A DNA stretch of 64,000 nucleotides from Candidatus Omnitrophota bacterium (GTDB lineage Bacteria > Omnitrophota > Gorgyraeia > Duberdicusellales > 4484-171): positions 15,120 through 79,119 of the forward strand of contig JBAWWL010000006.1 of assembly GCA_037146775.1 (NCBI GenBank). Reading direction: 5' to 3'. A program made the translations under genes and the position numbers. The stretch's first letter is position 1, and each line of letters begins with the position of its first letter. Shown in pieces: positions 4,976 to 51,495 of the stretch. Under the pieces are notes generated by a model that was not told the origin of the DNA, did not search any database, and saw nothing but the letters and a program-made list of their open reading frames with translations.

Positions 4976-5001
4976 ATTTAAGAATATTACGGATGAGAAA
5001 C

Positions 5002-15976: not shown

Positions 15977-16185
15977 TTTCTAAAAAATCCGTTCGCGTAA
16001 CGATATACAAGAAGCAAAATAATTATATACCTTAACCGCGATTATACATACTGGTCATATAGATAGCCGTTTTTTTAAAATCTAAATTTATATTTTAGCA
16101 CTAAAAACCACTTTTTGTAATATTTTTTTAGAAGGCCTGCGCAGGATAAAAAACCGTGCAGATAGACGGCAAACGGATGCGCACA

Positions 16186-16581: not shown

Positions 16582-16602
16582 AACAGTCTTTATAATTATC
16601 GG

Positions 16603-18308: not shown

Positions 18309-18320
18309 AATAGCTCGTCT

Positions 18321-22490: not shown

Positions 22491-22531
22491 GCCTCATCAT
22501 CATACCGTAAATATAATAGACGAATAGTATT

Positions 22532-22559
22532 ATTATAAAAGAATTATTGACTATTGCAA
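22532..22559 (-). promoter_or_regulatory. Sigma70-like promoter for the HD-GYP gene
   Basis: On the minus strand: TTGCAA (22554-22559), 16-nt spacer, TATAAT (22532-22537); about 40 nt upstream of the start. Confidence 0.4.
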
Positions 22560-22601
22560 GAAGGGTAAAGAAACGGCAGGAAAAAGCTTAAACCTCTGGC
22601 A

Positions 22602-22931
22602 TTAATTAACTTTTGCCAAAAACTGTGAGATACTTTGCTGGCTTTCGTTACTCGCTTCAACAAATTCCAAGCCGGCATTATACTTTTCGGAAGCTCTCAG
22701 TTTGTTACACCAAGCGACTTTTGCCTTTAAATTAATTACCGTATCAACAAGGTTAACATACACTTTCATCAAATAATCTTTAGGAAGAAACGTGTCACTG
22801 ATAATTTTTATACCGCCGGAGCTGAGGTCTTTACTGACGGTGTAAAAATAGTTTCCTTGCGGAAGGCTCTTGCATTCCACCGGAAACGAAATGTTAACCC
22901 GTGGATATCTTCTTCTTTCCTCCACTATCAC
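22602..22931 (-). CDS. PilZ-domain c-di-GMP receptor
   Basis: RRRYPR (RxxxR) and DLSSGG (DxSxGG) motifs. Confidence 0.7.
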   Translation of the reverse strand: MIVEERRRYPRVNISFPVECKSLPQGNYFYTVSKDLSSGGIKIISDTFLPKDYLMKVYVNLVDTVINLKAKVAWCNKLRASEKYNAGLEFVEASNESQQSISQFLAKVN

Positions 22932-22936
22932 TCCCT

Positions 22937-23347
22937 TTACAATACCGAAACGTACTCGCGATATCGTAATCCTGGCCCCAATAATTTCTTTAATTCAAAG
23001 GGCAACGCTCTGTCAAACTTAACGCCCACGTGCCAGCCATCACGCACTTTCTTGCACCAACAGACACACCCATTTAGAACAAAGGACACTTTTTCCTTTG
23101 TGGAAAATTTAAGGGTAACATGGCTACGGGAAGGAAGATGGACAGGAGAAAAAATACTAGCACCTTGTACGCTAATATCCCTGCATTGCACCGGGTAGCT
23201 TTGAGTTTCGGAAAGAACTAAATTGCCCTGAAGTGAACATAAAAACCGCTCTGCGCGGCGCCAGCACTGGAATGTTTCGCTGATAGCCGATTGCGACGGC
23301 CCTACCACTTTCGTGTTTTGTGCGCTTTCTGTTTTTTTTAGGCTCAT
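22937..23347 (-). CDS. PilZ-domain protein
   Basis: WRRAER (RxxxR) and DISVQG motifs; in tandem with the preceding PilZ gene. Confidence 0.55.
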   Translation of the reverse strand: MSLKKTESAQNTKVVGPSQSAISETFQCWRRAERFLCSLQGNLVLSETQSYPVQCRDISVQGASIFSPVHLPSRSHVTLKFSTKEKVSFVLNGCVCWCKKVRDGWHVGVKFDRALPFELKKLLGPGLRYREYVSVL

Positions 23348-24207: not shown

Positions 24208-24828
24208 TTATTTTTTCCCCTCGTTTACCTCGGTAATTAATTCGAGCAGTTGGATCGAATGATTCGTAAGCTCGTTTGCAATCACTTTTATCCTGCTGAT
24301 AAAATAATTATAACAAAGAGAAAGCGGTATGGCGACTATCAAACCGGCAGCGGTAGTAATCATTGCTTCGTACATGCCGCCCGCCAAAGCGCTGACTGTA
24401 ACATTGGCTCCGGCGTGTTCCCAGGACATAAACGCTCTGATCAATCCGGTGATGGTTCCAAGAAATCCAAGCAACGGCTCAAGACCAATAATTGACACAA
24501 GTATTCCAAAACGTTTTTCAAGCCGCTGGACCTGATTATTTCCCGCTTGCTCCATTATTTTTTCAAGCCTCTCTCTGGGAAGGCTGCGGCGCTCTATTCC
24601 GATTTTAAAAACTGCCGCCAAGGGGTGATGCGTATGTTCACATAATTCCAAAGCTGCCTGTATATTGCGCGCCTTGATCTCTTTAAAAACTGTTTGTATA
24701 AATTTAAAAGTATCCAGCCGGACCCCTCTAAATACCAGCAGCCTTTCGATCACCACGGCCAATCCTATTATTGAACCAAGTATTATCGGAACCATTACCG
24801 GTCCGCCCTTGATGATAAAATTAAGCAT
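24208..24828 (-). CDS. exbB: MotA/TolQ/ExbB proton-channel protein
   Basis: 206 aa, 3 TM; conserved ExbB C-terminal region; start overlaps the stop of the hydrogenase protease gene by 8 nt. Confidence 0.8.
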   Translation of the reverse strand: MLNFIIKGGPVMVPIILGSIIGLAVVIERLLVFRGVRLDTFKFIQTVFKEIKARNIQAALELCEHTHHPLAAVFKIGIERRSLPRERLEKIMEQAGNNQVQRLEKRFGILVSIIGLEPLLGFLGTITGLIRAFMSWEHAGANVTVSALAGGMYEAMITTAAGLIVAIPLSLCYNYFISRIKVIANELTNHSIQLLELITEVNEGKK

Positions 24829-25327
24829 AGATCTCCTTTTTGCGCTTATCGCAAATATTCAAAGCTTCTATTATGATATCAGAAACGCGTGTAACTCTTT
24901 TTTTCATTTCCGGCGAAATAGGTTTATTGAATACGATCGAACGAGGCTGTACCCCGATACACACCACCTCACAGGGAAACGATTGCTTTAAATATGCCGC
25001 CATCACCGACAACGGCAAACGGTGTGTGCAGAATGAAATCGCGTCTATCTCCTCCGGAGTGAATAATAGCGCCTGCGTGCGCGGCTTCTTTATCTGCGCA
25101 GCGTCGACCATCACAATGTGCGTTGGTCTAAATTTTTTTATCTCGCCGGTAAGATTCTCCGGGGCGGTCGAGCCAAGAAAAACTTTTATGCGTACCTGAC
25201 GCAAGGCAAGATGTTTTTGGATTTCCTGCGCAACCAACATACCGCATGCGTCATCTCCGCGAATTTCAGATCCGATACCTACGATCGCGACTCTTCTGGC
25301 CCCGCGCAGCCTATTTTGTAGTTGCAT
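24821..25327 (-). CDS. hycI: Hydrogenase maturation endopeptidase (HycI/HyaD family)
   Basis: VAIVGIGSEIRGDDACG motif; start probably MQLQNRLRG; the maximal ORF extends to 25381. Confidence 0.75.
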   Translation of the reverse strand: MQLQNRLRGARRVAIVGIGSEIRGDDACGMLVAQEIQKHLALRQVRIKVFLGSTAPENLTGEIKKFRPTHIVMVDAAQIKKPRTQALLFTPEEIDAISFCTHRLPLSVMAAYLKQSFPCEVVCIGVQPRSIVFNKPISPEMKKRVTRVSDIIIEALNICDKRKKEIYA

Positions 25328-25685
25328 TTTGAGCGTTTGCACGGAATACCACCTTAAGTTTACCAGCGTCAAGCTGCGCAAGTTCTACATCCGGTGTAGC
25401 TTCTAAAGCTTTCTTGGGGCAAGAATCAACGCACTGAGCACAGTAAATACACCGCCCTAAATCAATAACCGCTTCAAACTGCTTATCTCCGACCTTGTTA
25501 ATCGTGATTGCGCCGGTAGGACAATCCTTAATACACAATTTGCAACCGATACACTTCTGGGGATCATAGCTAAGTTTACCTCTGAATTTTTTAGGCATAT
25601 CAAACTTTTCATAAGGATAAAGTATAGTGCTTGGTTTTTTGAAAATAGACTCAAGAAGCTGACGTATCATTTTTCCCGGTCTCAT
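25311..25685 (-). CDS. 2x[4Fe-4S] ferredoxin subunit (NuoI/MbhN/HycF-like)
   Basis: Two motifs, CIGCKLCIKDCP and CIYCAQCVDSCP. Confidence 0.8.
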   Translation of the reverse strand: MRPGKMIRQLLESIFKKPSTILYPYEKFDMPKKFRGKLSYDPQKCIGCKLCIKDCPTGAITINKVGDKQFEAVIDLGRCIYCAQCVDSCPKKALEATPDVELAQLDAGKLKVVFRANAQNATTK

Positions 25686-26644
25686 TGTAAAACCATCCCT
25701 TTAATGAAAAGATTGATCAATAACTGCACAAACGCCAGCGGTACCATATATTTCCAGCAAAAAATGATCATCTGGTCTATACGCAAACGTGCAAAAAGCG
25801 CCCGGGAAAGCGACAGTATGGCCACAATACAGAAAATCTTCCCCATAAATATACCGAAACGCAGAAAGGGGCCACACGTATAGCCAAAAGGCAGGAATAC
25901 CGCTGCCAAGAAAGCCGCTCCTACCACCATTTCAATGTTCAATGTCAAACGCAACATCGCAAAAAACCTTCCGCTATACTCGGTGAAGATTCCCGCCACC
26001 ACCTCGGTTTCTGCTTCCGGAATATCAAAAGGCGCTTTTTCTAATTTTGCTAAAAGTGCTAAAACCGCGACGCCAAAACCAATAACGTTATATAGCCAGT
26101 ACCAGGGATGCGTATCATAAAATACGGCAATACGCGAAAGCGACCAGCTGTCGGCCAATAACGCCGAAGATAATACCGCGATAAATAAAGGGACTTCGTA
26201 AGAAAAAAGTTGTGTGAGCGAACGTACCGAACCGATTCTGGCAAAAAGCGAAGTTGAATACCAGCCGCCGATAAAAAATGCGAGCGTAGGAATGGTCAAA
26301 AGATAAAGCACTACTATGACATCTCCATCAAAAGAGTATAACGCACGCATATTCCATAATGGAATATAAAAAATAGTCGTGACGGTGGCACTTAAGGCAA
26401 CCAGCGGCATTAACTTAAACATACTCTGATTAGCTGCCCGCGGTATGATAGCCTCTTTACCTAATAGTTTAATAAAATCAGCGACCGGCTGAAACCATGG
26501 CGGGCCAATTCTATTTTGCAGCCGTGCATATAATTTCCGGTCGATAAATTCCGCAAAAAAGCTAATGACAGTTAAAAAAAGAAATCCCGGGAATATTAAA
26601 ATACAAAAAAGATCTTTAAGGTATCTGAACATTTCAGCCATCAA
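25682..26644 (-). CDS. Membrane subunit, NuoH/MbhM/HycD-like
   Basis: 320 aa polytopic NuoH-family protein. Confidence 0.8.
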   Translation of the reverse strand: MMAEMFRYLKDLFCILIFPGFLFLTVISFFAEFIDRKLYARLQNRIGPPWFQPVADFIKLLGKEAIIPRAANQSMFKLMPLVALSATVTTIFYIPLWNMRALYSFDGDVIVVLYLLTIPTLAFFIGGWYSTSLFARIGSVRSLTQLFSYEVPLFIAVLSSALLADSWSLSRIAVFYDTHPWYWLYNVIGFGVAVLALLAKLEKAPFDIPEAETEVVAGIFTEYSGRFFAMLRLTLNIEMVVGAAFLAAVFLPFGYTCGPFLRFGIFMGKIFCIVAILSLSRALFARLRIDQMIIFCWKYMVPLAFVQLLINLFIKGMVLQ

Positions 26645-27876
26645 AGCCTGACTTTGTCGGAAAAACTTTTATTAAGATCTGAAAAATCTACCCCTTGCTT
26701 CTTATACCACTCAATACTGTAGTTACGTAACTTCCCCCATTCGATAATTTCGTTATCCTTTTTGCCGCCATATTCAAGAGAAATTAGTCTGTCCGTACAG
26801 GAAAAACAGGGGTCAATCGCCGCGATCACGATCGGCATATCGGCGAGGTAGCGATCTTTAAGCATTTGTTTTACCGCTTTCATATTAGCTAAGGTCGGCG
26901 CCCGTACTTTTACCCGTTCGGGCTTGTCAGTTCCGTTAGATTTTACATAATGCATATCTTCTCCGCGTGGAGCTTCATAACGGCTAATCGCTTCTCCTGC
27001 CTTAACCGTACGCGGTGCCCTGACGACGATAGGGCTATCCGGCAAATTCGTTAATATTTGCCGTATTATTTTATACGCCTGCATCAATTCTTTAAGCCGC
27101 ACAAGGGTTCTGCCGTACACATCACCATGAGTATCAGTAATCACCTCAAAAGAAACTTGGTCATAAGCAGCATAAGGGTCATCCCGGCGCACGTCGCGAT
27201 CTACGGCCGAAGCTCGGCCAGTGGGGCCAACCGCACCCAGACGCACTGCTTCTTCGTGAGATAGAACACCGACGCCGGAAAGCCTCTTGATAAGCGTGGT
27301 TTCTTCGGTACCTATCTCAATATAATACTTTGTGCGTTCCTCAAGCGTATCTATCGCTTTAAGAACATCTGTAATTTGAGTTTTATCGATATCACGCCGC
27401 ACTCCGCCTATGGTATTAATACCATAGTTTACGCGATTCCCTGTAAGTAAGGCTAAAATATCCATCACCACTTCCCGGTCACGCCAGGTATACATCAATA
27501 ATGTGTCAAAACCTATTTCGTGGCCGGCCACTCCCAGCCAAAGATAGTGGCTATGGATACGCTCTAACTCAGCGACAAGAGTACGAATATACAACGCTCT
27601 CTGAGGAACGGTTAAACCGATTAACTCCTCAACCGCCTGCACAAAACATGTTGAATGAGCGTGCGAACAGATACCACAAATACGCTCAATAAGATAGAGG
27701 TCTTGGATATAAGTTCTCTCTTCGCAGGCTTTCTCTATTCCACGATGGTTATAACCAAGCCGTATATCCACACCTTTGATTTTCTCACCCTTGAGCGCAA
27801 TGCTAAAACTTGCCGGCTCCTTAAGCGCGGGGTGTTGTGGCCCTATGGGAATTTTAAATTTATGCGCATGCGTCAT
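26641..27876 (-). CDS. Group 4 [NiFe]-hydrogenase large subunit (NuoD/MbhL/EchE-like)
   Basis: N-terminal nickel-binding RICGICSHAH (RxCGxCxxxH); C-terminal DPCFSCTDR followed by a 48-aa extension of the kind removed by HycI-type proteases; strong Shine-Dalgarno AAAGAGGAGA. Confidence 0.85.
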   Translation of the reverse strand: MTHAHKFKIPIGPQHPALKEPASFSIALKGEKIKGVDIRLGYNHRGIEKACEERTYIQDLYLIERICGICSHAHSTCFVQAVEELIGLTVPQRALYIRTLVAELERIHSHYLWLGVAGHEIGFDTLLMYTWRDREVVMDILALLTGNRVNYGINTIGGVRRDIDKTQITDVLKAIDTLEERTKYYIEIGTEETTLIKRLSGVGVLSHEEAVRLGAVGPTGRASAVDRDVRRDDPYAAYDQVSFEVITDTHGDVYGRTLVRLKELMQAYKIIRQILTNLPDSPIVVRAPRTVKAGEAISRYEAPRGEDMHYVKSNGTDKPERVKVRAPTLANMKAVKQMLKDRYLADMPIVIAAIDPCFSCTDRLISLEYGGKKDNEIIEWGKLRNYSIEWYKKQGVDFSDLNKSFSDKVRL

Positions 27877-27897
27877 AATATTCTCCTCTTTACTGCT

Positions 27898-27988
27898 CAG
27901 GAATCAGAGGCCAGAAACCAGATGCCAGACACCAGAATTCAGGGAACAGAGGTCGGAAGTCAGAGAACAAAAATCAGAAGACAGAAAA
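27898..27988. repeat. Tandem array of 13 degenerate 7-bp units (CAGANNN), upstream of the large-subunit start
   Basis: caggaat cagaggc cagaaac cagatgc cagacac cagaatt cagggaa cagaggt cggaagt cagagaa caaaaat cagaaga cagaaaa, followed by the hairpin GGAGAAA-aacc-TTTCTCC at 27990-28007. Confidence 0.75.
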
Positions 27989-28082
27989 AAGGGAGAAAAA
28001 CCTTTCTCCTTCTTGTCTTTTACTGTCCGCCCCACATTCTCTTCTTGCTTTCTTTTATTCTTTTTCATCTGCTCTCTACCAT

Positions 28083-28643
28083 CTAGGTTTTATCCTTTAT
28101 ATCACGACTTCCATCTTCTATCCTCTGTCTTCTGTCATCTGTCATCTGACCTCTGTCTTCTGTCCTCTGACTTCTGTCATCTGTCATCTGAATTCTGTCT
28201 TTCGGTTTCCAGTCTTTACGCAAAGGAAACTCATCCATCGGCCAGTCATCAGGCAGTGGATAACGATGTGAAGGCGACAAAGTATCAATTTTTATACCCA
28301 ATAAATCCATCATTTCCCTTTCATAAATCTCCGCATAAGGAAAATACGGGGTTACGGTTTTAAAAACAGGATTGTCTCTGGAAGCTCCTGTTTTAATATT
28401 CAAAAGAACCCCTTTGTTGTCAGCAAGATGGTACAGCGCCGCCATCTGGACACCCTCGTCAAGGCCGGTGATAGCACAAAGATTCCCAAATCCCAGGTTT
28501 TTTACTGCATAGTCAAATACCTCAAGGAATTGACTGCCTTCTATCTCCAAAAAAATACGGCGCTGGCGCATTATTCTGATTTTACCTTCTAAGTAATGAA
28601 AACGCGTAGTTAGTGCTTGTTGAATATTTTCTTCTGCCGACAT
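28083..28643 (-). CDS. NuoC/MbhK/HycE-N-like hydrogenase subunit with a repeat-encoded low-complexity C-terminal tail
   Basis: 30-kDa-subunit fold. The last ~35 residues come from the 7-bp repeat array; the true stop may lie earlier. Confidence 0.7.
   Translation of the reverse strand: MSAEENIQQALTTRFHYLEGKIRIMRQRRIFLEIEGSQFLEVFDYAVKNLGFGNLCAITGLDEGVQMAALYHLADNKGVLLNIKTGASRDNPVFKTVTPYFPYAEIYEREMMDLLGIKIDTLSPSHRYPLPDDWPMDEFPLRKDWKPKDRIQMTDDRSQRTEDRGQMTDDRRQRIEDGSRDIKDKT
28110..28200. repeat. Tandem array of 13 degenerate 7-bp units (TCTGNNN), inverted with respect to 27898-27988; it encodes the C-terminal tail of the NuoC-like protein
   Basis: tccatct tctatcc tctgtct tctgtca tctgtca tctgacc tctgtct tctgtcc tctgact tctgtca tctgtca tctgaat tctgtct. 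Translated on the minus strand this gives RIQMTDDRSQRTEDRGQMTDDRRQRIEDGS. Confidence 0.75.
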
Positions 28644-28667
28644 GATATAACCTTATACCTTAATTGA

Positions 28668-29114
28668 CTATTTTTCTTTTACCGGCGTTTTAAGGCTTTC
28701 TAATAATTTCACTACTCCATCGATGATCGCCTTCGGACTTGCCGGACAACCAGGAACATACGCAGAAACCGGTAATACCGAGTCAATACCCGATCCAACA
28801 TTATAACAGCCTTTAAATACACCCCCGGAGCACGCACAGGTGCCTACGGCGATGACAAATTTTGGCGCACACATTTGTTCATAGATCCGCCTCAACCTGT
28901 CTTCTACCTGTTTCGTTACCGGGCCCGAACAGACAAGGATATCCGCCTGCCGAGGACCGCTTTTAAGCTGAACACCAAAACGCTCCAGATCGTAACGCGG
29001 AGTAAGGGTAGCAATAAGTTCGATATCACACGCGTTGCACGCGCCGGTATTAAAATGCAGGATCCACGGTGATTTGATTCGTGCCCAATTTACAATTTCT
29101 TTTATGCTAGCCAT
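28668..29114 (-). CDS. [NiFe]-hydrogenase small subunit (NuoB/MbhJ/HycG-like)
   Basis: Cysteine motifs CNACDIE, GTCACSGG and VPGCP. Confidence 0.85.
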   Translation of the reverse strand: MASIKEIVNWARIKSPWILHFNTGACNACDIELIATLTPRYDLERFGVQLKSGPRQADILVCSGPVTKQVEDRLRRIYEQMCAPKFVIAVGTCACSGGVFKGCYNVGSGIDSVLPVSAYVPGCPASPKAIIDGVVKLLESLKTPVKEK

Positions 29115-29116
29115 TG

Positions 29117-29452
29117 CTATTGTTTTCTCAAAAGAATAGACAACCCGACAACCGTACCGATAACATAAAGAATCCCCATTTCGAATGTCTTAATAGTACC
29201 TACGGGGACGGTGGTGATAATCAATGTCGCTACGTGCGCCAAGGTAAAGAAAAATGCAAAAGGAAAAAAATTACTGTAATCTACCTGCGCCATATTATCG
29301 TACGTATCTTCACCGCATGCGTAAGAATCGCGACCTTCGTCAGGCTTTTTTCCAGAACGATAGGAAAGCTTGGAAAATAAATACATCAATAGCAGCGCTG
29401 CTGCCAGAATAATTAGCATAGTGATTGGCGGAATAAGTAATAAGGTTTTCAT
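29117..29452 (-). CDS. Small integral membrane subunit of the hydrogenase/Mrp module
   Basis: 111 aa with 3 TM segments; no specific family could be assigned. Confidence 0.4.
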   Translation of the reverse strand: MKTLLLIPPITMLIILAAALLLMYLFSKLSYRSGKKPDEGRDSYACGEDTYDNMAQVDYSNFFPFAFFFTLAHVATLIITTVPVGTIKTFEMGILYVIGTVVGLSILLRKQ

Positions 29453-29480
29453 GCTCTCTCAATCCCTGTTTATTAATTCT

Positions 29481-29801
29481 TTAATCTTTTAATTCCCTAT
29501 TTTTTCTTACATCCAATGAATGGGTGTGACGATACATACCTAATACCACCCCCACCGCCACGGCAATCACCACTACCTCCACCACTATCATGGTAATCAC
29601 CAGGCTCTGAGCTAAAGCAGCGTGGTTAGTAATATAACCCACCGCGATAATTGAAAGCGTAACTGCCTTCATTAATATCTCAAGGCCAATTAAAGCCCTG
29701 ATAAAGTTATATGTCACCAGTGTACAATACAACCCGACGATGAAAATCATGATAGTAAAAAGACTGAACGGCCAAAATAATTGCAATGAATTAACGATCA
29801 T
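29481..29801 (-). CDS. MrpC/MnhC/NuoK-like subunit
   Basis: 106 aa, 3 TM; GLEILMKAVTLSIIA resembles NuoK/MnhC. Confidence 0.65.
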   Translation of the reverse strand: MIVNSLQLFWPFSLFTIMIFIVGLYCTLVTYNFIRALIGLEILMKAVTLSIIAVGYITNHAALAQSLVITMIVVEVVVIAVAVGVVLGMYRHTHSLDVRKNRELKD

Positions 29802-30285
29802 CCTTTCCGGACTCCTTAAATAATATCACTACGCTGAATACACCGGCCAATAAAATCATTATTTGCCCTAAAAGTTCTATTGGCCTATCATTCCACAAAA
29901 CTGTACGTGCATCTTTTTCTATTTCCGGTAACGGCAAGGCCAGGCGCGGCACGACGGAAATCATATTCAAAGCCACACCTACCACTACTACAATAAACGG
30001 CAAATACCAGAACCTGCGAATCCTATCTTTCATATGTTGCAGAACCTCTTCACGCGTAAGTGGGTGAGTTAAGCTGATGGTACTGATGAATAAAACCGGG
30101 ATTAAACCAGCGCACACCGAAAGTTCAAACACCGCTGCCAAAGGCGAACGCAACATAAACATAATCATAGTAAGCAATGAGCTCATCATAGCAAGACAGA
30201 TGGCTGAACGCAACAAACTCCTGGTCATAGCTGCCCAGAGGGCAACGGCTGTTAACGATATAAGAATAAGGATGAACGCAAGCAT
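29791..30285 (-). CDS. MnhB/MrpB-domain membrane subunit
   Basis: 164 aa polytopic protein of MnhB type. Confidence 0.5.
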   Translation of the reverse strand: MLAFILILISLTAVALWAAMTRSLLRSAICLAMMSSLLTMIMFMLRSPLAAVFELSVCAGLIPVLFISTISLTHPLTREEVLQHMKDRIRRFWYLPFIVVVVGVALNMISVVPRLALPLPEIEKDARTVLWNDRPIELLGQIMILLAGVFSVVILFKESGKDDR

Positions 30286-31719
30286 TTAACCTCCGACGAA
30301 AAAACGTACCGGTAATATAAAAACATCCAATATAAAAGGAAAAAATAAACCTGCCGCTACTACAATAAACGCGAGCACTATCGACGCTAACACCAAGCCA
30401 AAACCAGCTTCGTGCGTATGAGCTAAATCTTGCCGCAATTTTCCGAAAAATACCATCCGTTGCATTGCTAAAAGATAACTCAAAGTTAAAACGCTTGCTA
30501 AAATCGCCGCAAAAGCAATAGCAAAATGCCCGGTCTGCCATAAAGCTATTACGATAAGAAGCTTGCTCCAAAAACCTGCCAACGGCGGGACACCGGCGGC
30601 AGACAGACTGGCAAGAACTGAAGTAAAACCGGTAACCGGCATGGTTTTAGAAAGCCCTCCCATCCGATGCATATCCGTTGTGCCGGTTTCCAGTTCCAAA
30701 GCAGCCGCGTTGACGAATAACAGTGACTTAAAAATCGTATGATTGAAAAAATGAAAGGCTGCTGCTGCCATGCCTAAGGGCGTTGCGCAACCAAGACCCA
30801 GCATAATATAGCCTACCTGGCTGATACTGGAATAGGCGAGCATTCTTTTCAAATCACTTTGAGCCAACGCAGCTAAAGCTGCAATAAATATGGAAAGTAA
30901 GCCGATACTTAAGATAACCATGTCCACCGAAGCATCCGGCATAAAAACAAAACTCACTACTCTTATCAGAGCATACACGCCTAAAATCTTGGATACTATA
31001 CCAGCGAGAAATAAAGAAACGGCTGCGGAAGAATGAGAATACACATCAGGAAGCCAGGCATGAAACGGAACAAGTCCTGCTTTTACGGAAAGTCCGCTGA
31101 TAAAAAGCCCCACAGCAAGCATAGCCAGAAACGTATGCTCCGAACGGGGAAGTGCCTGATGTATTGCCATAAAATGAGTGCTGCCGGTAATAAGGAGTAA
31201 AATGGCTATTGATAACAGCATAAAAACCGAAGCAACGATGGAAAGAACGATATATTTAAATGTCGCACTCATCGCCCGCAAGTCTTTTTCGAAAGAAATA
31301 AGAACATAGGAAGCCACCGCGGTGATTTCAATAAAGACATACAGAGAAAAAATATCAGCCACCAAGACCACCGCGTTCATCCCGCTTACCGCGAACAACA
31401 ACAGATTAATAAAGTTAAATTTGCGCCGCTGATCTTTATGCACAGAGGCGGCCACCACTAACGTCAAGGACGCTACAATACCGATACAAAGCAGCATTAG
31501 AATACTTAAACCGTCCAGCATAAGCCCGAATTTAAACATAGAGCCGGGCAATTGGAAACTTGTAGCATAGGATGGTATAGTCAGAAAAAACGACAGAACT
31601 GCCTGGGCGCCAAACAAAAGTAAGCTCCACCAAAATATAAATCCGCGTCCTCTATTGAAAAAAGGAAGATTAAAAATGATGACGCTTAAAAATGGGACTA
31701 CTATCAATAGGGATAACAT
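30286..31719 (-). CDS. Mrp antiporter-like subunit (MrpD/NuoM-like)
   Basis: 477 aa proton-pumping-subunit family (WLPDVYSHSSAAVS). Confidence 0.8.
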   Translation of the reverse strand: MLSLLIVVPFLSVIIFNLPFFNRGRGFIFWWSLLLFGAQAVLSFFLTIPSYATSFQLPGSMFKFGLMLDGLSILMLLCIGIVASLTLVVAASVHKDQRRKFNFINLLLFAVSGMNAVVLVADIFSLYVFIEITAVASYVLISFEKDLRAMSATFKYIVLSIVASVFMLLSIAILLLITGSTHFMAIHQALPRSEHTFLAMLAVGLFISGLSVKAGLVPFHAWLPDVYSHSSAAVSLFLAGIVSKILGVYALIRVVSFVFMPDASVDMVILSIGLLSIFIAALAALAQSDLKRMLAYSSISQVGYIMLGLGCATPLGMAAAAFHFFNHTIFKSLLFVNAAALELETGTTDMHRMGGLSKTMPVTGFTSVLASLSAAGVPPLAGFWSKLLIVIALWQTGHFAIAFAAILASVLTLSYLLAMQRMVFFGKLRQDLAHTHEAGFGLVLASIVLAFIVVAAGLFFPFILDVFILPVRFFVGG

Positions 31720-31723
31720 ATTT

Positions 31724-33568
31724 TTATCTACCTTTAATTGAATAAAAGAGAAATACCACCACGAGAGATAACCCCGCCAACGCCCACCCTAAATATACGG
31801 AATAATTTTCTGTATGCCTCCTCTTAATAACACCGGCGAGCCATACAATAAACTTTGCCACTACACCTTCGTATAACCAGTCTATTTTTCTGTCTACCCA
31901 AAAAGCAATCGCGCACATCCTTTTTAAAAAAATACGGCCGACATCGTACGGGTCGAAGAATCTACGTTCGGCTCGATCGTATACCCCGCGAAGCAAAGGT
32001 GCGCGGCGTATATGATCGGCGGCATGCAGGCCGCTGCCGGACATCTTTACTCCAAAAATATGATTCAAAAATGCCAGCACCAAGACTATCACAGTCGCAA
32101 TCGTAAGTTTCAGATTTAAAGGAAAAACAGTAAAACTATGACCGTGTAACCTCTCCTGGCCCAATACAGGGGCAATCAGCTTAGCCAGAGGTACACTATT
32201 GAACAAACCGAATAATATACAGAAGAGACTTAAAACGATCATAGGAACTAACATACCCCAGGATGCTTCTTGTGCGCTTTTGTTTTTTTCCGAGACACCG
32301 CCAAAGAATACGGCATGGCCGAGCTTTAAAAAAGAGGCGGCCGTGAAGAAAGATCCTATAATTGCCGCAAGATAAAAAATAAGCCCCCTACTCAGGGCTG
32401 CTTCATAAATTAATTCTTTAGAGAAAAATCCGTTAAAGGGTGGAACTCCCGATATCGAAACAGCGGTAACAGCAAAACATACGAAGGTTACCGGCATTTT
32501 CTTCATCAAGCCGCCCAAAACTTCTAAATCAGCCGTTCCTGTTTGTTTTTCTACCGAGCCGGCAGTAAGAAAAAGAGCGCTTTTGTAAATTGCGTTATTA
32601 ATCATATGAAACAATCCACCCACAATACCTATGGGCAACGCCGTACCGATACCTAAGATCATGTAACCCACCTGGCTGATAGCATGATATGAAAGAAGCC
32701 GTTTATAGTTTTTCTGGATCAAGGCCATCATGACCGCCAGAAGTATAGTGCCTGAGCCAATAATCATAAGTAAAACACTCAACCAGGAAGCCGGGTTAAG
32801 CTGAAACAAATCCAAGGAAATTCGGGTGAGAAAATAGATACCTAAAAGTTTTTCTAAAACTGCAGGCACCAGGGCCATGAAAGGCACGTCGCTTGCAATG
32901 GCGGCGTCGGGTATCCAGCTGTGAAACGGCATAGAGCCGGCCTTAGAGATAGCACCAATCATCAAAAGAATAAATGCAACCACAGACATCCCCTGCAAAG
33001 GAAGATTAATCTTTGACATAGTCAATGTTCCGGCGAGATAGCCACAGAGAGCTATACCGATCATCATACACAAATCCGCGATACCGGTTATTATAAAAGC
33101 TTTTGTTGCCGCTTTAAACGCGTGGTTTGAGCCGATAGCTATCATCCCGAAAAGAACCAAAAGCAATCCCTCCCAGAAAAATAGCATCAGGAACAAGTTA
33201 TCAGAAAGCACTGCGCCGCAGGCAAAAGCAATGGTTATCAAAAAATAGGAGTAAAACTGCCGCAAGTGCGCCTTAGCGCTCATGAAAAAAACTGAGTACA
33301 GAGAGATCAAAAACCCGAATCCATTGACTGCCAGCATAATAAACGCGCTGAAGCGGTATAATCGTAAAGAAAATTCAAAAGACGGCCCCAGCCAAGGCAA
33401 AATATACACGCAATCATTTTTAAATAGAAATAAAGTCAATAAAAAATTGGCTGCCGTAGCAGAGAGCGTAATACATTCTCTTACCTTACGTAACCTATGC
33501 GGAACAAAAAATGTTCCTAAGGCAGCGGCTAAGGGTATAAGTATTGGCAGAAATAGCAGCTTATTCAT
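31724..33568 (-). CDS. Mrp antiporter-like subunit (MrpA/NuoL-like)
   Basis: 614 aa (WIPDAAIASDVPFMA); C-terminal extension typical of NuoL/MrpA. Confidence 0.8.
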   Translation of the reverse strand: MNKLLFLPILIPLAAALGTFFVPHRLRKVRECITLSATAANFLLTLFLFKNDCVYILPWLGPSFEFSLRLYRFSAFIMLAVNGFGFLISLYSVFFMSAKAHLRQFYSYFLITIAFACGAVLSDNLFLMLFFWEGLLLVLFGMIAIGSNHAFKAATKAFIITGIADLCMMIGIALCGYLAGTLTMSKINLPLQGMSVVAFILLMIGAISKAGSMPFHSWIPDAAIASDVPFMALVPAVLEKLLGIYFLTRISLDLFQLNPASWLSVLLMIIGSGTILLAVMMALIQKNYKRLLSYHAISQVGYMILGIGTALPIGIVGGLFHMINNAIYKSALFLTAGSVEKQTGTADLEVLGGLMKKMPVTFVCFAVTAVSISGVPPFNGFFSKELIYEAALSRGLIFYLAAIIGSFFTAASFLKLGHAVFFGGVSEKNKSAQEASWGMLVPMIVLSLFCILFGLFNSVPLAKLIAPVLGQERLHGHSFTVFPLNLKLTIATVIVLVLAFLNHIFGVKMSGSGLHAADHIRRAPLLRGVYDRAERRFFDPYDVGRIFLKRMCAIAFWVDRKIDWLYEGVVAKFIVWLAGVIKRRHTENYSVYLGWALAGLSLVVVFLFYSIKGR

Positions 33569-33575
33569 CTTATTA

Positions 33576-35018
33576 TTAGTGGCTCATTATTTGCCAAGTG
33601 GCAACCTTGGCAAAAATAAAAGGAAAATTAATCAAGATCCCGCTCGCCAAAGAAAGGATTGCCAGCGTTACCACACAGGCGAGCATCCCTGGCGAACCCT
33701 CTATAGCTTCTGGCCCGTGCGTTTCTCCCATAAAAACCATGTTGAATACCCTGAAAAGATACGCAATAGTTAAACAAGCTCCCGCTAAAAAAAGAAATAT
33801 AATATAGAAATTCCCGGACTCTGCCGCAGCGCTAAAAACCATATACTTGCTAAAAAACCCTCCAAAAGGCGGTATCCCCATTACGGAAAAAGCGCAAAAC
33901 AAAAAAGATACAGCGGTAAGAGGCATGGTCTTGATAAGCCCTCCGAGAGAGGTAATATCTCTTGTTTTCGTGTTCTGTTCGACAATACCGGCGCAAAGAA
34001 AAAGTCCGGCCTTGGAAATACCGTGCATAAGAATATATAACAGCGCGCCGATAATACCGATTTCCTTGCCGAGAGCAAATCCAAGAAAAATAAAACCTAT
34101 CTGGCTAATAGTGGAATACGCGATGATCCGTTTTAAGTCCGTTTCTATCAAAGCTGCTCCTCCGGCCACCAGAGCGCTCACACCCGCACTACAAGGTATG
34201 ATGGTATGCCAAATAAACGAAACATCAAAAGTTGCCACAAAAATCCTGGCAAAAACATACACCCCTATTTTAACCAGCACGGCCGCATGCAGAAGTGCTG
34301 TCACCGGAGAAGGCGCAATACCGGCATCAGGAAGCCAAGTCTGAAAAGGCAGCGTGGCTGATTTGGCGAATATGCCGCACAAAAGCAGCAACACCACCAT
34401 ATTATCCAACGGCCGGGACTTAAAAACTTCTCGTATAACCGCAAGGTCAAACGAGCCAGCCTGCTGATAGATAGAAATAAAACCGATCAGCATCAAAAGC
34501 GATCCGAAGATCGTTATGAGAAAAGCTTTATCAGCGCGCAGAATATAGTGTTTCTCCCTGAAAAAACCGATCAAACGCCAGCTACATACGGCGGTTATTT
34601 CCCAAAAAACATATATAAATATCAAGTTGGCGGAAAAAACCAGCCCCATCATCGCCCCCAGGAATAAGGTAACCATAGAATAATATTCGTTCTGATTTTC
34701 ATAATGGCTGATATAGCTAAAAGAATAAAGTAGAATAACCGTGCTCAAAAATGCCGACACGCAAGCCATAAAAACAGCTAATGAGTCGGCAGTAAACACA
34801 AGATTGAAACCCTGCGGGAATTGTCGCGCAAAGATCAAGGTTTTCCCGGATATTACCAACGGTATCAGCGACAAAGAAAGCACAAACGAAGAAAAAATCA
34901 AAATAAAGGAAAAAATATTTCGTAACCGGGCATTATATCGACCTAATAACGGCAGGAAAAATGCTCCAGCAAGAGGGATAAAAATAGTGCTCAAAAGTAT
35001 CATTTTGTATTTAATCAT
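33576..35018 (-). CDS. Mrp antiporter-like subunit (MrpD/NuoN-like)
   Basis: 480 aa (WLPDAGIAPSPVTA); its start overlaps or abuts the mgtA stop. Confidence 0.8.
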   Translation of the reverse strand: MIKYKMILLSTIFIPLAGAFFLPLLGRYNARLRNIFSFILIFSSFVLSLSLIPLVISGKTLIFARQFPQGFNLVFTADSLAVFMACVSAFLSTVILLYSFSYISHYENQNEYYSMVTLFLGAMMGLVFSANLIFIYVFWEITAVCSWRLIGFFREKHYILRADKAFLITIFGSLLMLIGFISIYQQAGSFDLAVIREVFKSRPLDNMVVLLLLCGIFAKSATLPFQTWLPDAGIAPSPVTALLHAAVLVKIGVYVFARIFVATFDVSFIWHTIIPCSAGVSALVAGGAALIETDLKRIIAYSTISQIGFIFLGFALGKEIGIIGALLYILMHGISKAGLFLCAGIVEQNTKTRDITSLGGLIKTMPLTAVSFLFCAFSVMGIPPFGGFFSKYMVFSAAAESGNFYIIFLFLAGACLTIAYLFRVFNMVFMGETHGPEAIEGSPGMLACVVTLAILSLASGILINFPFIFAKVATWQIMSH

Positions 35019-37617
35019 AACCGAATTTCCTGATAAACCACCCTTTCACTATCTGGACTAAGATGAGATACGTGAGGACCATAAAAAATAGAAACACAAA
35101 ATAAAGCGGCGGCGGAGCCACGAAACTAAAAGCGCTCGCCAAAGGCGAAAATGGGATCGCGATACCGATAGTAACTATTAAAATCGAAGTCAAAATCAAA
35201 AAACGGCTGGGACGGCTTTCAATAAAAGGAATTTTTCCGGTACGTATTATATGGATAACCAGCGTCTGGGTGCACAGGGACTCGATGAACCATCCAGTAT
35301 GGAAAAGCGCCGGGTTATTCCAAGTGTTAAAAACAAAAAGCATTATACCATAGGTAAGAAAATCGTAAATCGAACTTAAAGGCCCTATGATAACCATAAA
35401 ATTCCTGATCGCCTTCACATTCCAGGGCCTGGGCTTACTTAAATAATCCCTATCCACCTCATCAGTAGGTATCGCCACTTGGGAGAGGTCATAAAGAAAA
35501 TTATTGAGCAATATCTGGATAGGTAACATCGGCAAAAACGGCAAGAACAGACTGCCGCCGGTCATACTAAGCATATTGCCAAAATTGGAGCTGGAGCCCA
35601 TCTTGATATATTTAACGATATTACCGAAGGTTTTTCTGCCCTCCATAACGCCGTCTTCAAGCACCATAAGGCTTTTCTTCAAAAGTATAATATCCGCTGA
35701 TTCCTTGGCAATATCCACCGCATTATTTACGGAAATGCCTACATCCGAAGCTTTAAGGGCGGGTGCATCATTGATACCGTCACCGAGGTAACCGACGATG
35801 TGCTGGTTATTATGCAAGGCGTGGATAACCCGTTCTTTTTGCAACGGTGCAAGCCGAGCAAAGACAGTGGTGGTTTTCACTACTTCCCGGAGTTCCTGAT
35901 CACTCATTGTTTCGATCTGGATACCAGTAACCAGACCTTTCACGTCCAACCCCACTTCTTTGCATATTTTCTTGGTTACCAACTCGTTATCACCGGTTAA
36001 AACCTTAACTTCCACTCCTAAATTTTTAAGAGCTCTGATGGCTTTCTTGGCCGTAGGCTTTGGCGGATCAAGAAACGCTAAATAACCTTTAAGCACCAAA
36101 TCTTTTTCATCTTCTTTCGAATACACGTCTTTTGCGGTATCGATATCCTTATAAGCAACAGCCAAAACCCTGAAACCTTCGGAACTTAGCTTATCATATT
36201 CCTCTTTAAGATCGGCAAGTATCAAATACTCCATATCCAGGAATTCTCCGTCTATTTCGTACTTCGAACATCGTTTAAAAATTTCCTCCGGTGCACCCTT
36301 GGAAATAATACGTCGTTTACCGTCCATATCAACCACTACCGACATTATTTTTCTGGAAAAATCAAAGGGTATTTCGTCTATCTTTCTAAATTTTTCCGTC
36401 AACACTTCCTGGTGCTTTAAAATAGCGCGGTCAAGAAGATTTTTTAAACCAGTCTGAAAAAAACTATTAAGGTAAGAAACCCGCAGAACATCCTCGTCTT
36501 CCCTGCCTACCACATCGCAGTGCCTTTCCAAAACTATATGGTCCAGGGTTAAGGTGCCGGTCTTATCGGTGCAGAGCACATCCATTGCTCCAAAATTCTG
36601 TATGGAGTTTAAGCGCTTAACAATAACCTGTTTCTTCGACATCTTGATCGCACCCTTGGAAAGATTGATCGCCACCAGCATCGGCAACATTTCCGGAGTC
36701 AAACCAACCGCCACACCAAGAGAAAACAACAAGGACTCAATGAGGTTTCCGCGCCGCAGCGCGTTGATAGCGAAAATAAAGCATACCATAAAAAGCATAG
36801 CGCGGATCATCAGCCAGGTAAATCTTTGTATCCCTTTGTCGAAACTCGTTTCCACCCTAATGGTAGCCAGCCGGCGCGATAGCTCTCCAAACCGGGTATT
36901 AATGCCGGTTTTTATCGCAACGCCTAAAGCCGTTCCGCTCACCACGCTTGAGCCCATAAAGACAATATTAGACAGCTCTGAAATGGAATTATTTTTCGGC
37001 TGGATAACATCCGAGTTCTTTTCGATGGGGAATGATTCTCCGGTTAAAGAAGCCTGGTTAATAAAAAGATCTTTGGAAGAAATAATCCTTAAGTCAGCCG
37101 GGATCATATCGCCGGCGAACAAATCAACGATATCTCCGGGGACTATCTCCCTGATGTTGATTTCTTGTGCCTGGCCATCACGGTACACGGTAGCGGTAGT
37201 ACGCACCATTTCTCTTAATTTTTCGGCTTCTTTGCTGGAACGGTATTCTTGAACAAAGGAAAGAAAAACGCTCATTAGAACCATCGCAAAAACCAGTATG
37301 GCGCTGATTTTGCCTCCAAAAAATAACGAAAAGGTTCCAATAATAATCAGCACGATAACGAGTGGGTTGAGAAACTTGGAAAGAATTTGTGCGAAAATAG
37401 TACGCTTTTTCTTCTTGGCAGGCTCATTGGGACCGTACACAGAAAGGCGCTCGCGGGCATCTTTCGTCGAAAGCCCCTTTTCGGAAGTTTTCAGTCTCTC
37501 AAAAATCGCTTTAAGAGAGGCGCTCACAAAACCAACCTCAAAACCTGCAAACTGACCCCGGTCACCTGGAGAAAGAGGTGTAACGTGAGTAGTGTTTGGC
37601 TTCCAAGATATTCTCAT
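35011..37617 (-). CDS. mgtA: Mg2+-importing P-type ATPase MgtA
   Basis: 868 aa; phosphorylation site CTDKTGTLT; MgtA-specific AGDMIPADLRI, QASLTGESFPIEK and LTGDNELVTKKICKEVGL. Confidence 0.85.
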   Translation of the reverse strand: MRISWKPNTTHVTPLSPGDRGQFAGFEVGFVSASLKAIFERLKTSEKGLSTKDARERLSVYGPNEPAKKKKRTIFAQILSKFLNPLVIVLIIIGTFSLFFGGKISAILVFAMVLMSVFLSFVQEYRSSKEAEKLREMVRTTATVYRDGQAQEINIREIVPGDIVDLFAGDMIPADLRIISSKDLFINQASLTGESFPIEKNSDVIQPKNNSISELSNIVFMGSSVVSGTALGVAIKTGINTRFGELSRRLATIRVETSFDKGIQRFTWLMIRAMLFMVCFIFAINALRRGNLIESLLFSLGVAVGLTPEMLPMLVAINLSKGAIKMSKKQVIVKRLNSIQNFGAMDVLCTDKTGTLTLDHIVLERHCDVVGREDEDVLRVSYLNSFFQTGLKNLLDRAILKHQEVLTEKFRKIDEIPFDFSRKIMSVVVDMDGKRRIISKGAPEEIFKRCSKYEIDGEFLDMEYLILADLKEEYDKLSSEGFRVLAVAYKDIDTAKDVYSKEDEKDLVLKGYLAFLDPPKPTAKKAIRALKNLGVEVKVLTGDNELVTKKICKEVGLDVKGLVTGIQIETMSDQELREVVKTTTVFARLAPLQKERVIHALHNNQHIVGYLGDGINDAPALKASDVGISVNNAVDIAKESADIILLKKSLMVLEDGVMEGRKTFGNIVKYIKMGSSSNFGNMLSMTGGSLFLPFLPMLPIQILLNNFLYDLSQVAIPTDEVDRDYLSKPRPWNVKAIRNFMVIIGPLSSIYDFLTYGIMLFVFNTWNNPALFHTGWFIESLCTQTLVIHIIRTGKIPFIESRPSRFLILTSILIVTIGIAIPFSPLASAFSFVAPPPLYFVFLFFMVLTYLILVQIVKGWFIRKFGYD

Positions 37618-37722
37618 ACGTATTATATTGTTTTCATGTTATACGGTTAATCAAAAAATAAATAAGTCTTCCAGTATATCTACCGAAAGACTTTATATTC
37701 TTTACCTTAACTCGAATGGACG

Positions 37723-37750
37723 ATTTTACTCTTCTTCATTCATTTGTCAA
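37723..37750 (-). promoter_or_regulatory. Sigma70-like promoter upstream of mgtA
   Basis: On the minus strand: TTGACA (37745-37750), 16-nt spacer, TAAAAT (37723-37728); an AT-rich leader of ~100 nt runs to the mgtA start. Confidence 0.45.
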
Positions 37751-37824: not shown

Positions 37825-38679
37825 CTAGCAGAATTCGCGAGGCAGCTCTTGGCGGGCTCTTGCATGCTGAATCACAAGACGGGCGTCTTCTTCGCGGATT
37901 TTAACCGTTTCTACGCCTATGTCAAATGCGTGCTCCGATAGCTGCGTAACTCTTACAATTTTGACCACAGCCGAGATGGGGGAAACAGAAACTTCCTTTG
38001 GAAGGTCGATTTGCAATACTACATAAGAGCCTACCGGCAGAACTTTTTCCGACTGAAACAAAAACCCATGAAAACTTATATTTTTTGTTTGAGATCGTCT
38101 ATACTGTTCTTGCAAAGGAAAATGTATGTCGATTTTGGCGTTTAACCGGACCGACCTCCGACGTTCACTGCCATCATACCGATCATCATCCAGAGATATC
38201 GCAACCCCATGATCACTTTTACCTGCGCCAGGGGTAATAGTAATATGATAATAGTTTTCAATGGCTTTTATGATATCTGAAATGAGGCCTACAAAAGGTT
38301 GTATTCTGTAGCCGGTTTTCTCTTCAACCTCTCTGATAGCGTCAGTATCAGCCGGATCAGCCATAACTACCGTGATAACGTTATCTATCTTATCTATCGG
38401 AATAAGCCAGTATTTCTGGACTAGATCTTGAGGTATAAGCCGGATAATATCTTGAGGAATTGCATACGCTTCCAGAGGAAGATAAGGAAAACCAAACTGG
38501 GCACAGATGCATTTGGCCAAATCCTCTTCCTTTATATACTTCGCAGTAAGTAAATATTGCGTTACGCCTATGCCGGACTTACTCTGATAGTGAAGCGCTT
38601 CTTTTAAAATATCTTCGGTAATAAGTTTATGCTCTAATAAAATTTGGCCTATTTTTTTCTTCTTCAAAACTGAAAACAT
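37825..38679 (-). CDS. MshEN (T2SSE_N)-PilZ fusion c-di-GMP receptor
   Basis: Tandem 24-residue MshEN motifs KIGQILLEHKLITEDILKEALHYQ and GVTQYLLTAKYIKEEDLAKCICAQ; C-terminal PilZ (ERRRSVR, NISFHG). Confidence 0.7.
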   Translation of the reverse strand: MFSVLKKKKIGQILLEHKLITEDILKEALHYQSKSGIGVTQYLLTAKYIKEEDLAKCICAQFGFPYLPLEAYAIPQDIIRLIPQDLVQKYWLIPIDKIDNVITVVMADPADTDAIREVEEKTGYRIQPFVGLISDIIKAIENYYHITITPGAGKSDHGVAISLDDDRYDGSERRRSVRLNAKIDIHFPLQEQYRRSQTKNISFHGFLFQSEKVLPVGSYVVLQIDLPKEVSVSPISAVVKIVRVTQLSEHAFDIGVETVKIREEDARLVIQHARARQELPREFC

Positions 38680-38831: not shown

Positions 38832-39527
38832 TTACTTTATCTCGTAAGAAAGTATGATGGCTTCGGCGATTTCCTTCATATGTAAACGCCGGTTCATGCT
38901 CGCCTTACGAATGAGGTCGTAAGCTTCTTCTTCCGTAAGATGTTTTTCTTTCATTAGAATACCTTTCGCGCGTTCGACTTTTTTCCGCGCCTCCAACTCT
39001 TCCTGCGCGATACGAGCCTTCACCAACAACTCGGTATTCTCAATCGCAACCGCTGCCTGGTTCGCTACGGTGCTTAAAAGATCGATGTCTCTCTGGGCAA
39101 ACTTGTATACCTGAGTAGTGTAACAATTGATAACTCCAAACGCTTTATTTTTTACCATCATGGGAACGCTAAGCATCGATACCAAACCTTCTTTTTTAGC
39201 GAGCGTTTTTTCCTTATAACGCGCATCCAGGAGTACGTCAGCGATAAAAATCGGTTTTTTCTCTTTAGCGACAAGCCCGACTATCCCCTCCCCGACCTTC
39301 AAAGAACGTTCTTTCAGATAATCCTGACTCATTGCCTGGGTTGCCCGTATCTTTAACTCCTGCGTGCGCTCGTCTAAAAGCCATAAGGAGCAGATTTTTG
39401 CGCCCACCACGTTTGCGGTAAGTGTAACGATAAGCTTAAGCACATCTTCCAGATAAAGATCAGAAGTCATGGCTTTGCTTATTTTACTGAGAGTTTCAAG
39501 ATAATCTTTATATGGTGACTTCTTCAT
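38832..39527 (-). CDS. GAF and ANTAR domain RNA-binding regulator
   Basis: N-terminal GAF domain; the C-terminal ANTAR helix pair reads EARKKVERAKGILMKEKHLTEEEAYDLIRKASMNRRL. Confidence 0.75.
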   Translation of the reverse strand: MKKSPYKDYLETLSKISKAMTSDLYLEDVLKLIVTLTANVVGAKICSLWLLDERTQELKIRATQAMSQDYLKERSLKVGEGIVGLVAKEKKPIFIADVLLDARYKEKTLAKKEGLVSMLSVPMMVKNKAFGVINCYTTQVYKFAQRDIDLLSTVANQAAVAIENTELLVKARIAQEELEARKKVERAKGILMKEKHLTEEEAYDLIRKASMNRRLHMKEIAEAIILSYEIK

Positions 39528-41869: not shown

Positions 41870-43246
<1,377 letters not shown>

Positions 43247-43260
43247 TTATTTTTATGTGG

Positions 43261-51450: not shown

Positions 51451-51495
51451 AGTATGTTCTTACGGGTATGTTCTATACATGAAAACTGGCAGGAG

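Follow-up and report, generated by a model that had tools for sequence, protein, structure and literature searches.

A widespread Mbh-like group 4 [NiFe] hydrogenase operon, probably joined to mgtA and exbBD by accretion in one Omnitrophota sub-lineage

Membrane [NiFe] hydrogenases with Mrp antiporter-like subunits have been described from metagenome-assembled genomes (MAGs) under two names, as "group 4g" Mrp-linked enzymes in Omnitrophota and as the "Mbh-Mrp type" in Elusimicrobia (PMC8542988; 10.1101/765248; PMC9324843), the assignment to group 4g in Omnitrophota being that of PMC8542988. These clusters are predicted to produce H2 from ferredoxin and to build an ion gradient (PMC8542988; PMC9324843; 10.1101/765248). 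A term search of PMC8542988 gave no mention of ExbB, TonB or MgtA, and a literature search pairing Omnitrophota with ExbB, TonB or TolQ returned no relevant paper. Here we analyse a comparable operon in a 64,000-nucleotide (nt) stretch of a Candidatus Omnitrophota bacterium (GenBank assembly GCA_037146775.1, contig JBAWWL010000006.1, positions 15,120 to 79,119), hereafter the window. On its minus strand, mgtA is followed by 12 hydrogenase genes, exbB, exbD and a weak terminator. The hydrogenase family is widespread in uncultured anaerobic phyla and probably represents a major route of H2 formation coupled to ion pumping; to our knowledge, no member of it has been purified or solved. Our analysis shows that the 12-gene operon is an ordinary, widely conserved and already known one, with mgtA and exbBD lying outside its core. 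These additions were quite probably joined to it by operon accretion in one Omnitrophota sub-lineage, and no new complex needs to be assumed.

Gene identities were assigned from Pfam and NCBIfam scans of the open reading frames (ORFs) of the window, and the gene content, order and coordinates given in an earlier note on this DNA were all recovered, every gene being on the minus strand (Table 1). Judged from its motifs and homologues, the enzyme is an Mbh-like group 4 energy-converting [NiFe] hydrogenase, as the earlier note had proposed. Both NiFe ligand motifs, RICGICSHAH and DPCFSCTDR, can be read intact in the large subunit, and 10 relatives all keep its metal-binding cysteines. Among solved large subunits, Pyrococcus furiosus MbhL is the closest (319 bits), followed by HycE (269 bits) and Nqo4 of complex I (220 bits). 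A further 47 residues follow DPCFSCTDR, an extension that fits a precursor cleaved by HycI. Since the NiFe ligand cysteines are kept and hycI is present, the protein belongs to a hydrogenase rather than to a quinone reductase of the Nuo type. The NuoB-like small subunit, with its [4Fe-4S] cysteines, is co-encoded with NuoC-, NuoH- and NuoI-like partners, a set that together with the two ligand motifs defines a group 4 [NiFe] hydrogenase. HycI scores 109.4 bits against TIGR00142, just under the cut-off of 119.1, and 83.2 bits against TIGR00072, above the cut-off of 47.45; this family match, along with a large subunit carrying a C-terminal extension, identifies it as a maturation endopeptidase. 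The operon thus holds every catalytic and cluster-binding motif and the maturation protease, while Pfam scans of all other sizeable ORFs of the window found neither hyp genes nor a formate dehydrogenase, in agreement with the earlier note.

The membrane subunits were assigned by the same means. The N-terminus of antiporter-like subunit 1 is conserved from residue 1-2 in orthologues, and the protein scores 294 bits against the HyfD model. For antiporter-like subunit 2, the NuoL model NF005141 covers residues 2-609 of 614 and the solved chain 6u8y_X matches residues 9-605, making it MbsH'-like, including the C-terminal extension. Among solved chains, the small membrane subunits are nearest to those of Mbh and MBS: 6cfw_D and 6u8y_D for the NuoJ/MbhD-like subunit, and 6u8y_G and 6cfw_G, along with NdhE, for the NuoK/MrpC/MbhG-like subunit. 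The NuoA-like subunit has no match among solved structures, and its gene lies directly before nuoB in most related loci. The small subunits previously labelled "MrpB/C-like" are equally NuoJ/K/A-like.

By homology with Mbh, reduced ferredoxin would give electrons to the NuoI-like subunit with its two [4Fe-4S] clusters, from which they would pass via the [4Fe-4S] NuoB-like small subunit to the NiFe site of the NuoD-like large subunit, where protons would be reduced to H2. The energy could then be transmitted through the NuoH-like and small membrane subunits to the three antiporter-like subunits, which would export H+ and/or Na+. HycI would trim the C-terminal extension of the large subunit once the metal is inserted. 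Since no extra electron-input module is encoded, reduced ferredoxin is the probable donor.

Homologues of the large subunit number in the thousands, with more than 100 clusters at 73-79 % identity, the named ones mostly from Omnitrophota; an identical protein is encoded in a Candidatus Omnitrophota MAG (GCA_964613555.1, contig CAZTHQ010000006.1). A genome scan for related loci returned 80, labelled Omnitrophota, Phycisphaerae/Planctomycetes, Kiritimatiellae, Elusimicrobia, Margulisiibacteriota, Spirochaetota, Aminicenantes, Acidobacteriota, Bacillota and others. As assessed by tblastn, nine robust marker genes are collinear in 53 of the 80 loci, and all 12 core genes are collinear in 37 of 53 loci with enough flank, the failures being mostly loci in which small, weakly detectable subunits were missed. 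On the other hand, mgtA lies upstream of the operon in only one of the 80 loci and exbBD directly downstream in only four, and neither belongs to the core. The "unusual" coupling of an ion pump, a hydrogenase and a stator that the earlier note had seen here is therefore not supported.

Some relatives (L-numbers denote the fetched loci compared with the window) depart locally from this gene order. L001, L004 and L097 appear to lack hycI at its usual place: similarity search or gene calling found none after the NuoI-like gene, where a non-coding gap of about 80-600 nt precedes exbB. In L093, an ORF with a GIY-YIG domain (8066-8356) separates the NuoK-like gene from the NuoA-like gene; further downstream (16083-18667), a gene for a reverse-transcriptase-TIR fusion stands beside a DUF4917 gene and resembles a defence system.

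The ATPase encoded at the 5' end belongs to MgtA. It matches the type IIIB equivalog models over its full length and above their cut-offs (TIGR01524, 1069.1 bits against 610.75; NF011702, 1045 against 975), and its closest solved structures are those of MgtA (8uy7, 857 bits). What distinguishes it from a usual MgtA gene is its overlap with the first gene of the hydrogenase operon, found in two genomes only. Across the fetched loci, an mgtA gene in front of the operon was seen in three cases only: in the window and L082 it overlaps the operon by 8 nt, and in L002 it is separated from it by about 220 nt. The window and L082 share a promoter-like element, ATTGACAAAT-N-GAGTAAAAT, upstream of mgtA; L093 lacks mgtA and has the element directly before its first hydrogenase gene. 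This arrangement suggests that mgtA entered behind an ancestral hydrogenase promoter, ahead of the first gene of the operon, which in turn supports co-transcription. The promoter and leader span 37655-37750 on the minus strand of the window, about 100-190 in L082 and about 1985-2130 in L093. The leader hairpin is kept in L082 with pairing-preserving changes, and the leader of L093 is longer and includes a separate terminator-like hairpin. The hairpin of the window may control the operon as an attenuator, or it may terminate transcription of the upstream gene.

Several other candidates for this region were set aside. At gathering thresholds, Rfam matched no part of the window, and its matches on the leader were at chance level only, so that a known RNA element such as an Mg2+ leader RNA was rejected. 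Base composition showed no sign of a foreign origin of mgtA or exbBD. In the window, L093 and L095, the DNA upstream of the hydrogenase operon encodes a GAF-ANTAR regulator, with a glutamine synthetase gene beside it in the window and L093 (window 38832-39527 and 39592-40926; L093 1-1826; L095 2152-2877). ANTAR targets are expected to carry tandem hexaloop hairpins; no convincing pair of these was found in four leaders, and ANTAR antitermination was not retained.

The scores of ExbB and ExbD stay below the cut-offs of all NCBIfam equivalog models. The best-scoring model is TolQ, at 101 bits (cut-off 221), with TolR at 43 (cut-off 127); given these scores and the lack of adjacent tolA, tolB and pal, a Tol-Pal system (TolQ-TolR) was rejected. 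ExbBD of the window type (70-88 % identity for ExbB) is encoded after the hydrogenase in L082/83, L087/88, L090, L093, L096 and L097, where the junctions vary from 19 nt of overlap to a gap of 201 nt; in the ExbD of L087, 83 % identical to that of the window, the predicted membrane helix contains an aspartate. In L084, a PBP gene lies after hycI with no exbBD between them; the same gene follows exbD in L090, L093 and L096. No exbBD follows the operon in the Omnitrophota loci L002, L094, L095, L012, L014, L018, L019 and L047, nor in the sampled loci from other phyla.

ExbB of this type is found at sites apart from the hydrogenase as well (L089/91, L098, L099 and L100; 66-73 % identity), with an aldolase-like gene before it in L089/91, a DUF502 gene in L099 and glutamate synthase genes in L100. 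A metagenome scan with this ExbB gave six loci only, and sampling of contexts from the protein database was more informative. In L098, a 647-kb Omnitrophota contig, the gene belongs to a cluster of the order TonB-dependent receptor, exbB, exbD, tonB (3085-6647), and its product is 68 % identical to ExbB of the window. Since this orthologous pair sits in a canonical Ton cluster, the window pair is most simply explained as a relocated Ton motor, and ExbB/ExbD are most likely an ordinary Ton motor that moved beside the hydrogenase in one sub-clade. The likeness to a TonB-ExbB-ExbD system thus lies in the ExbB and ExbD domains and in this relative, the difference in the equivalog scores and in the missing partners: Pfam scans of the remaining sizeable ORFs found no TonB and no TonB-dependent receptor in the locus or the rest of the window, and homologues of the L098 TonB and receptor were found neither there nor in any fetched locus. 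The earlier description as a "TonB-less" stator therefore stands for the absence of tonB from the locus and the window, but not for the system, which is likely a Ton motor.

All genes from mgtA to exbD, 15 in total, probably form one transcript that starts near 37716 and ends near 23680. The tight spacing of the genes and the promoter element conserved upstream of mgtA, or of the hydrogenase in L093, make the single transcription unit of about 14 kb that was proposed before plausible. The two 8-nt overlaps of that proposal, mgtA with the first antiporter-like gene (ATGATTAA, 35018-35011) and hycI with exbB (ATGCTTAA, 24828-24821), can both be read in the sequence, and at the latter an AAGGAG ribosome-binding site precedes the exbB start. 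Since overlaps are common in the window (13 of the 47 pairs of same-strand neighbours outside the operon), they argue for co-transcription but not for a shared mechanism, and alone they say little on function. The terminator placed after exbD is present as a hairpin with a T run, but it is weak.

The otherwise tight packing is broken by the 206-nt nuoC-nuoD spacer. Purine-rich tandem repeats based on a 7-mer occupy the 3' end of nuoC and encode a repetitive protein tail, and the spacer carries their pyrimidine-rich complement, resulting in a long hairpin (minimum free energy -99.6 kcal/mol, z = -4.8). Within the window, the purine-rich motif is confined to this region, and the public copy of the contig contains one more 42-nt repeat unit in the nuoC tail. 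L088, a relative with 93 % identity, has no such hairpin, which is thus strain-specific. As the promoter scan found no promoter-like site on the coding strand of the spacer, the predicted structure seems more likely to serve processing or stabilisation than termination.

Accretion would have proceeded in two places. The gene of the Mg2+ importer MgtA would have been inserted behind the hydrogenase promoter, and exbB-exbD, encoding the motor of Ton-dependent outer-membrane uptake, would have been placed directly after hycI, the outcome being operon growth in a compact genome with at most shared regulation of membrane-energy genes. Three kinds of observation weigh against this account. One concerns the enzyme, since homology is the only source for the catalytic direction, the electron donor and the ion translocated. 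Another concerns possible internal signals, discussed below. The third is a second ExbB/ExbD type, about 30 % identical to that of the window and 60-76 % within itself, which directly follows the hydrogenase in L001, L004, L086, L011 and L026; in four of these five loci (L001, L004, L026 and L086), a membrane pyrophosphatase gene comes after exbD. Neighbour joining on four concatenated hydrogenase subunits groups L001, L004, L086 and L011 as the sister of the clade with window-type ExbBD. A second type at the same position is unlike simple chance adjacency and suggests selection for a stator pair with the hydrogenase. One clade could, in that case, have kept a MotA/ExbB-family stator pair at the 3' end by selection, often beside a membrane pyrophosphatase or MgtA gene, in a dedicated "membrane-energy" operon, which we regard as unlikely; if true, gradient-consuming (or nickel-importing) motors would be expressed as one unit with an ion-pumping hydrogenase. 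Separate recruitment of the two ExbB types would mean that the linkage is under selection. Their identities to each other (A and B, 30 %) and to the unlinked outgroup ExbB of L092 (39 % for A, 33 % for B) fit divergence in place and replacement alike, and the second type, too, stays below all NCBIfam cut-offs. More generally, the linkage could have been selected for energy coupling, so that makers and users of the gradient (ExbBD/TolQR-like stators, pyrophosphatase, MgtA) are made together, with the hydrogenase as a main ion-gradient generator in these fermentative bacteria. The tight junctions (overlaps of 8, 19, 8 and 4 nt and a 13-nt gap), the pyrophosphatase genes and the 3' position shared by two divergent types in sister clades, while other neighbours vary, all accord with such coupling. 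However, among the loci sampled, roughly half of those from Omnitrophota and all those from other phyla are without the linkage, the same ExbB type stands elsewhere in L098, L099, L100 and L089/91, and a single ancestral fusion with vertical inheritance accounts for most occurrences, which leaves selection for energy coupling rather improbable.

A different objection is that the locus could consist of three abutting independent units, with internal promoters driving the hydrogenase and exbBD and with overlaps reflecting genome compaction only. The earlier note had named internal promoters and terminators as evidence against a single unit, and such sites are indeed predicted: promoter-like sites inside mgtA (35369-35342; 10/12 matches, extended -10 TG) and inside exbB (24581-24554 and 24335-24307), a terminator-like hairpin near 35149-35106 and a terminator-like hairpin tip in the nuoC-nuoD spacer (28009-27992). 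The frequency of overlaps between unrelated genes of the window agrees with this view. Yet matches of both kinds exceed the shuffled expectation only modestly (promoter-like, 48 against 34.7 +/- 5.5; terminator-like, 29 against 20.1 +/- 4.5), the conserved promoter sits upstream of mgtA, and the two overlapping junctions leave no non-coding space at all, so we give independent units only a small chance. The additions might also supply nickel, with an MgtA-type pump importing Ni2+ across the inner membrane and ExbBD energising a TonB-dependent nickel receptor, so that metal supply would be bundled with the enzyme and its maturation protease. Salmonella MgtA and MgtB also transport Ni2+, nickel uptake in Helicobacter pylori proceeds through a TonB/ExbB/ExbD-dependent receptor, and some hydrogenase clusters include metal transporter genes; moreover, hycI, responsible for a nickel-dependent maturation step, adjoins exbB. 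This proposal appears very unlikely here, as the ATPase is far above the Mg2+ equivalog cut-off, the window scans gave no receptor, tonB, hyp or nik genes, mgtA is linked in three genomes only, and most hydrogenase operons of the family have neither addition. We thus favour accretion, by which the attachments of mgtA and exbBD mainly illustrate operon growth in compact genomes; they would matter more if transcripts showed Ton/Tol-like motors to be co-regulated with the gradient generator.

Table 1. Features of the mgtA-hydrogenase-exbBD locus (window coordinates; aa, amino acids; bp, base pairs)
Feature	Position	Strand	Basis
sigma-70-like promoter TTGACA-16-TAAAAT, candidate transcription start	37723-37750	-	11/12 consensus positions
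13-bp leader hairpin and U run, between promoter and mgtA start	37655-37693	-	hairpin prediction
mgtA, type IIIB Mg2+-importing P-type ATPase	37617-35011	-	Pfam, TIGR01524
antiporter-like subunit 1, NuoL/MrpA/HyfD-like, 480 aa	35018-33576	-	Proton_antipo_M E = 2.3e-73, NCBIfam
antiporter-like subunit 2, NuoL/MbsH'-like, 614 aa, C-terminal extension	33568-31724	-	Proton_antipo_M, NF005141
antiporter-like subunit 3, NuoM/N/MrpD-like, 477 aa	31719-30286	-	Proton_antipo_M E = 7.2e-71, NCBIfam
small membrane subunit, NuoJ/MbhD-like	30285-29791	-	Oxidored_q3, MbhD matches
small membrane subunit, NuoK/MrpC/MbhG-like	29801-29481	-	Oxidored_q2 E = 2.1e-16
small membrane subunit, tentatively NuoA-like	29452-29117	-	weak Oxidored_q4, under curated cut-off
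hydrogenase small subunit, NuoB-like, [4Fe-4S] cysteines	29114-28668	-	Oxidored_q6 E = 2.7e-30
NuoC/MbhK-like subunit, repetitive C-terminal tail	28643-28083	-	Complex1_30kDa
purine-rich tandem repeats and pyrimidine-rich complement, long imperfect hairpin	27890-28190	-	folding
[NiFe] large subunit, NuoD/MbhL-like, C-terminal extension	27876-26641	-	motifs RICGICSHAH, DPCFSCTDR
NuoH/MbhM-like membrane subunit	26644-25682	-	NADHdh E = 1.1e-74
NuoI/MbhN-like 2x[4Fe-4S] subunit, presumed ferredoxin electron entry	25685-25311	-	Fer4 families
HycI-type maturation endopeptidase, likeliest start ATG at 25327	25327-24821	-	PF01750
exbB, MotA/TolQ/ExbB family	24828-24208	-	PF01618
exbD	24207-23779	-	PF02472
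terminator-like hairpins and T run 3' of exbD	about 23725-23680	-	weak: 6-bp stem, 3 G-C pairs

The wider surroundings of the locus were also recorded. Genes of cyclic di-GMP-type signalling are dense in the window (21075-23347, 37825-38679 and 50287-53321): immediately after exbD come two PilZ genes and a HAMP-HD-GYP-like gene, an MshEN-PilZ gene closely precedes mgtA, and two further HD_5 proteins with a response regulator are encoded elsewhere. A glutamate dehydrogenase gene stands beside an NfnAB/SudAB-like pair, a GltD-like protein and a DHODB-type Fe-S flavoprotein (41870-45506). The glutamate dehydrogenase and NfnAB/SudAB-like genes come directly after exbD in L097, indicating that the neighbourhood has been rearranged among relatives. 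A cell-wall and division cluster (ddl, murB, murC, murG and ftsW; 56375-63949) is interleaved with two Peptidase_MA_2 genes, and a lipid A acyltransferase gene (48282-49121) points to the presence of an outer membrane in the cell envelope. In the sister clade, the H+/Na+ pyrophosphatase gene is found at 12554-14806 in L001, 7897-10179 in L004, 6174-6905 in L026 and 14051-16334 in L086, and it is apparently split or frameshifted in L086 and L026.

The hydrogenase was compared with characterized enzymes. Besides providing the closest solved large subunit, Mbh of P. furiosus (group 4d; PDB 6CFW) shares with it the NuoB/C/D/H/I-like module, MbhD-like and MbhG-like small subunits and the antiporter-like family. 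The gene order (small subunits, B, C, D, H, I) parallels mbhD-N, and neither has an extra electron-input module, implying a ferredoxin donor. Unlike Mbh, which has a single antiporter-like subunit (MbhH), the window operon encodes three, one of them with a NuoL-like C-terminal extension; it has no homologues of MbhA/B/C (MrpE/F/G), with no unassigned gene left, and comprises 11 structural genes instead of 14. It is also bacterial and contains hycI inside the operon. A strict group 4d Mbh, with 14 subunits and a single MbhH, was ruled out by the 11 genes and the three antiporter-like subunits.

The Hyf/Hyc enzymes of Escherichia coli (hydrogenase 4/formate hydrogenlyase; PDB 7Z0S) resemble the window enzyme in the three antiporter-like subunits, as in Hyf, in HycE, the second-closest solved large subunit, and in the HycI-type protease. 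In contrast to them, the window operon lacks formate dehydrogenase and a HyfA/HycB-type electron-input module, keeps NuoC and NuoD separate where they are fused in E. coli, and has additional NuoJ-like and NuoA-like subunits. Formate hydrogenlyase (4a/4b) was accordingly rejected, neither a formate dehydrogenase nor a HycB/HyfA-type subunit being encoded in the operon or the window.

With the eleven-subunit complex I (NuoA-D and NuoH-N, without NuoEFG), the enzyme has in common the subunit families and their number, as well as a NuoL-like subunit with a long C-terminal extension. It differs in the NuoD homologue, which keeps four NiFe cysteines and a cleavable C-terminal extension, and in the presence of hycI; the retained cysteines and hycI ruled out a respiratory complex I. 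The group 4g/Mbh-Mrp clusters in MAGs of Omnitrophota, Cloacimonadota, Auribacterota and Elusimicrobia likewise combine a membrane NiFe hydrogenase with Mrp antiporter-like subunits. Standing between Mbh and the eleven-subunit complex I, the subunit set of this operon is of evolutionary interest.

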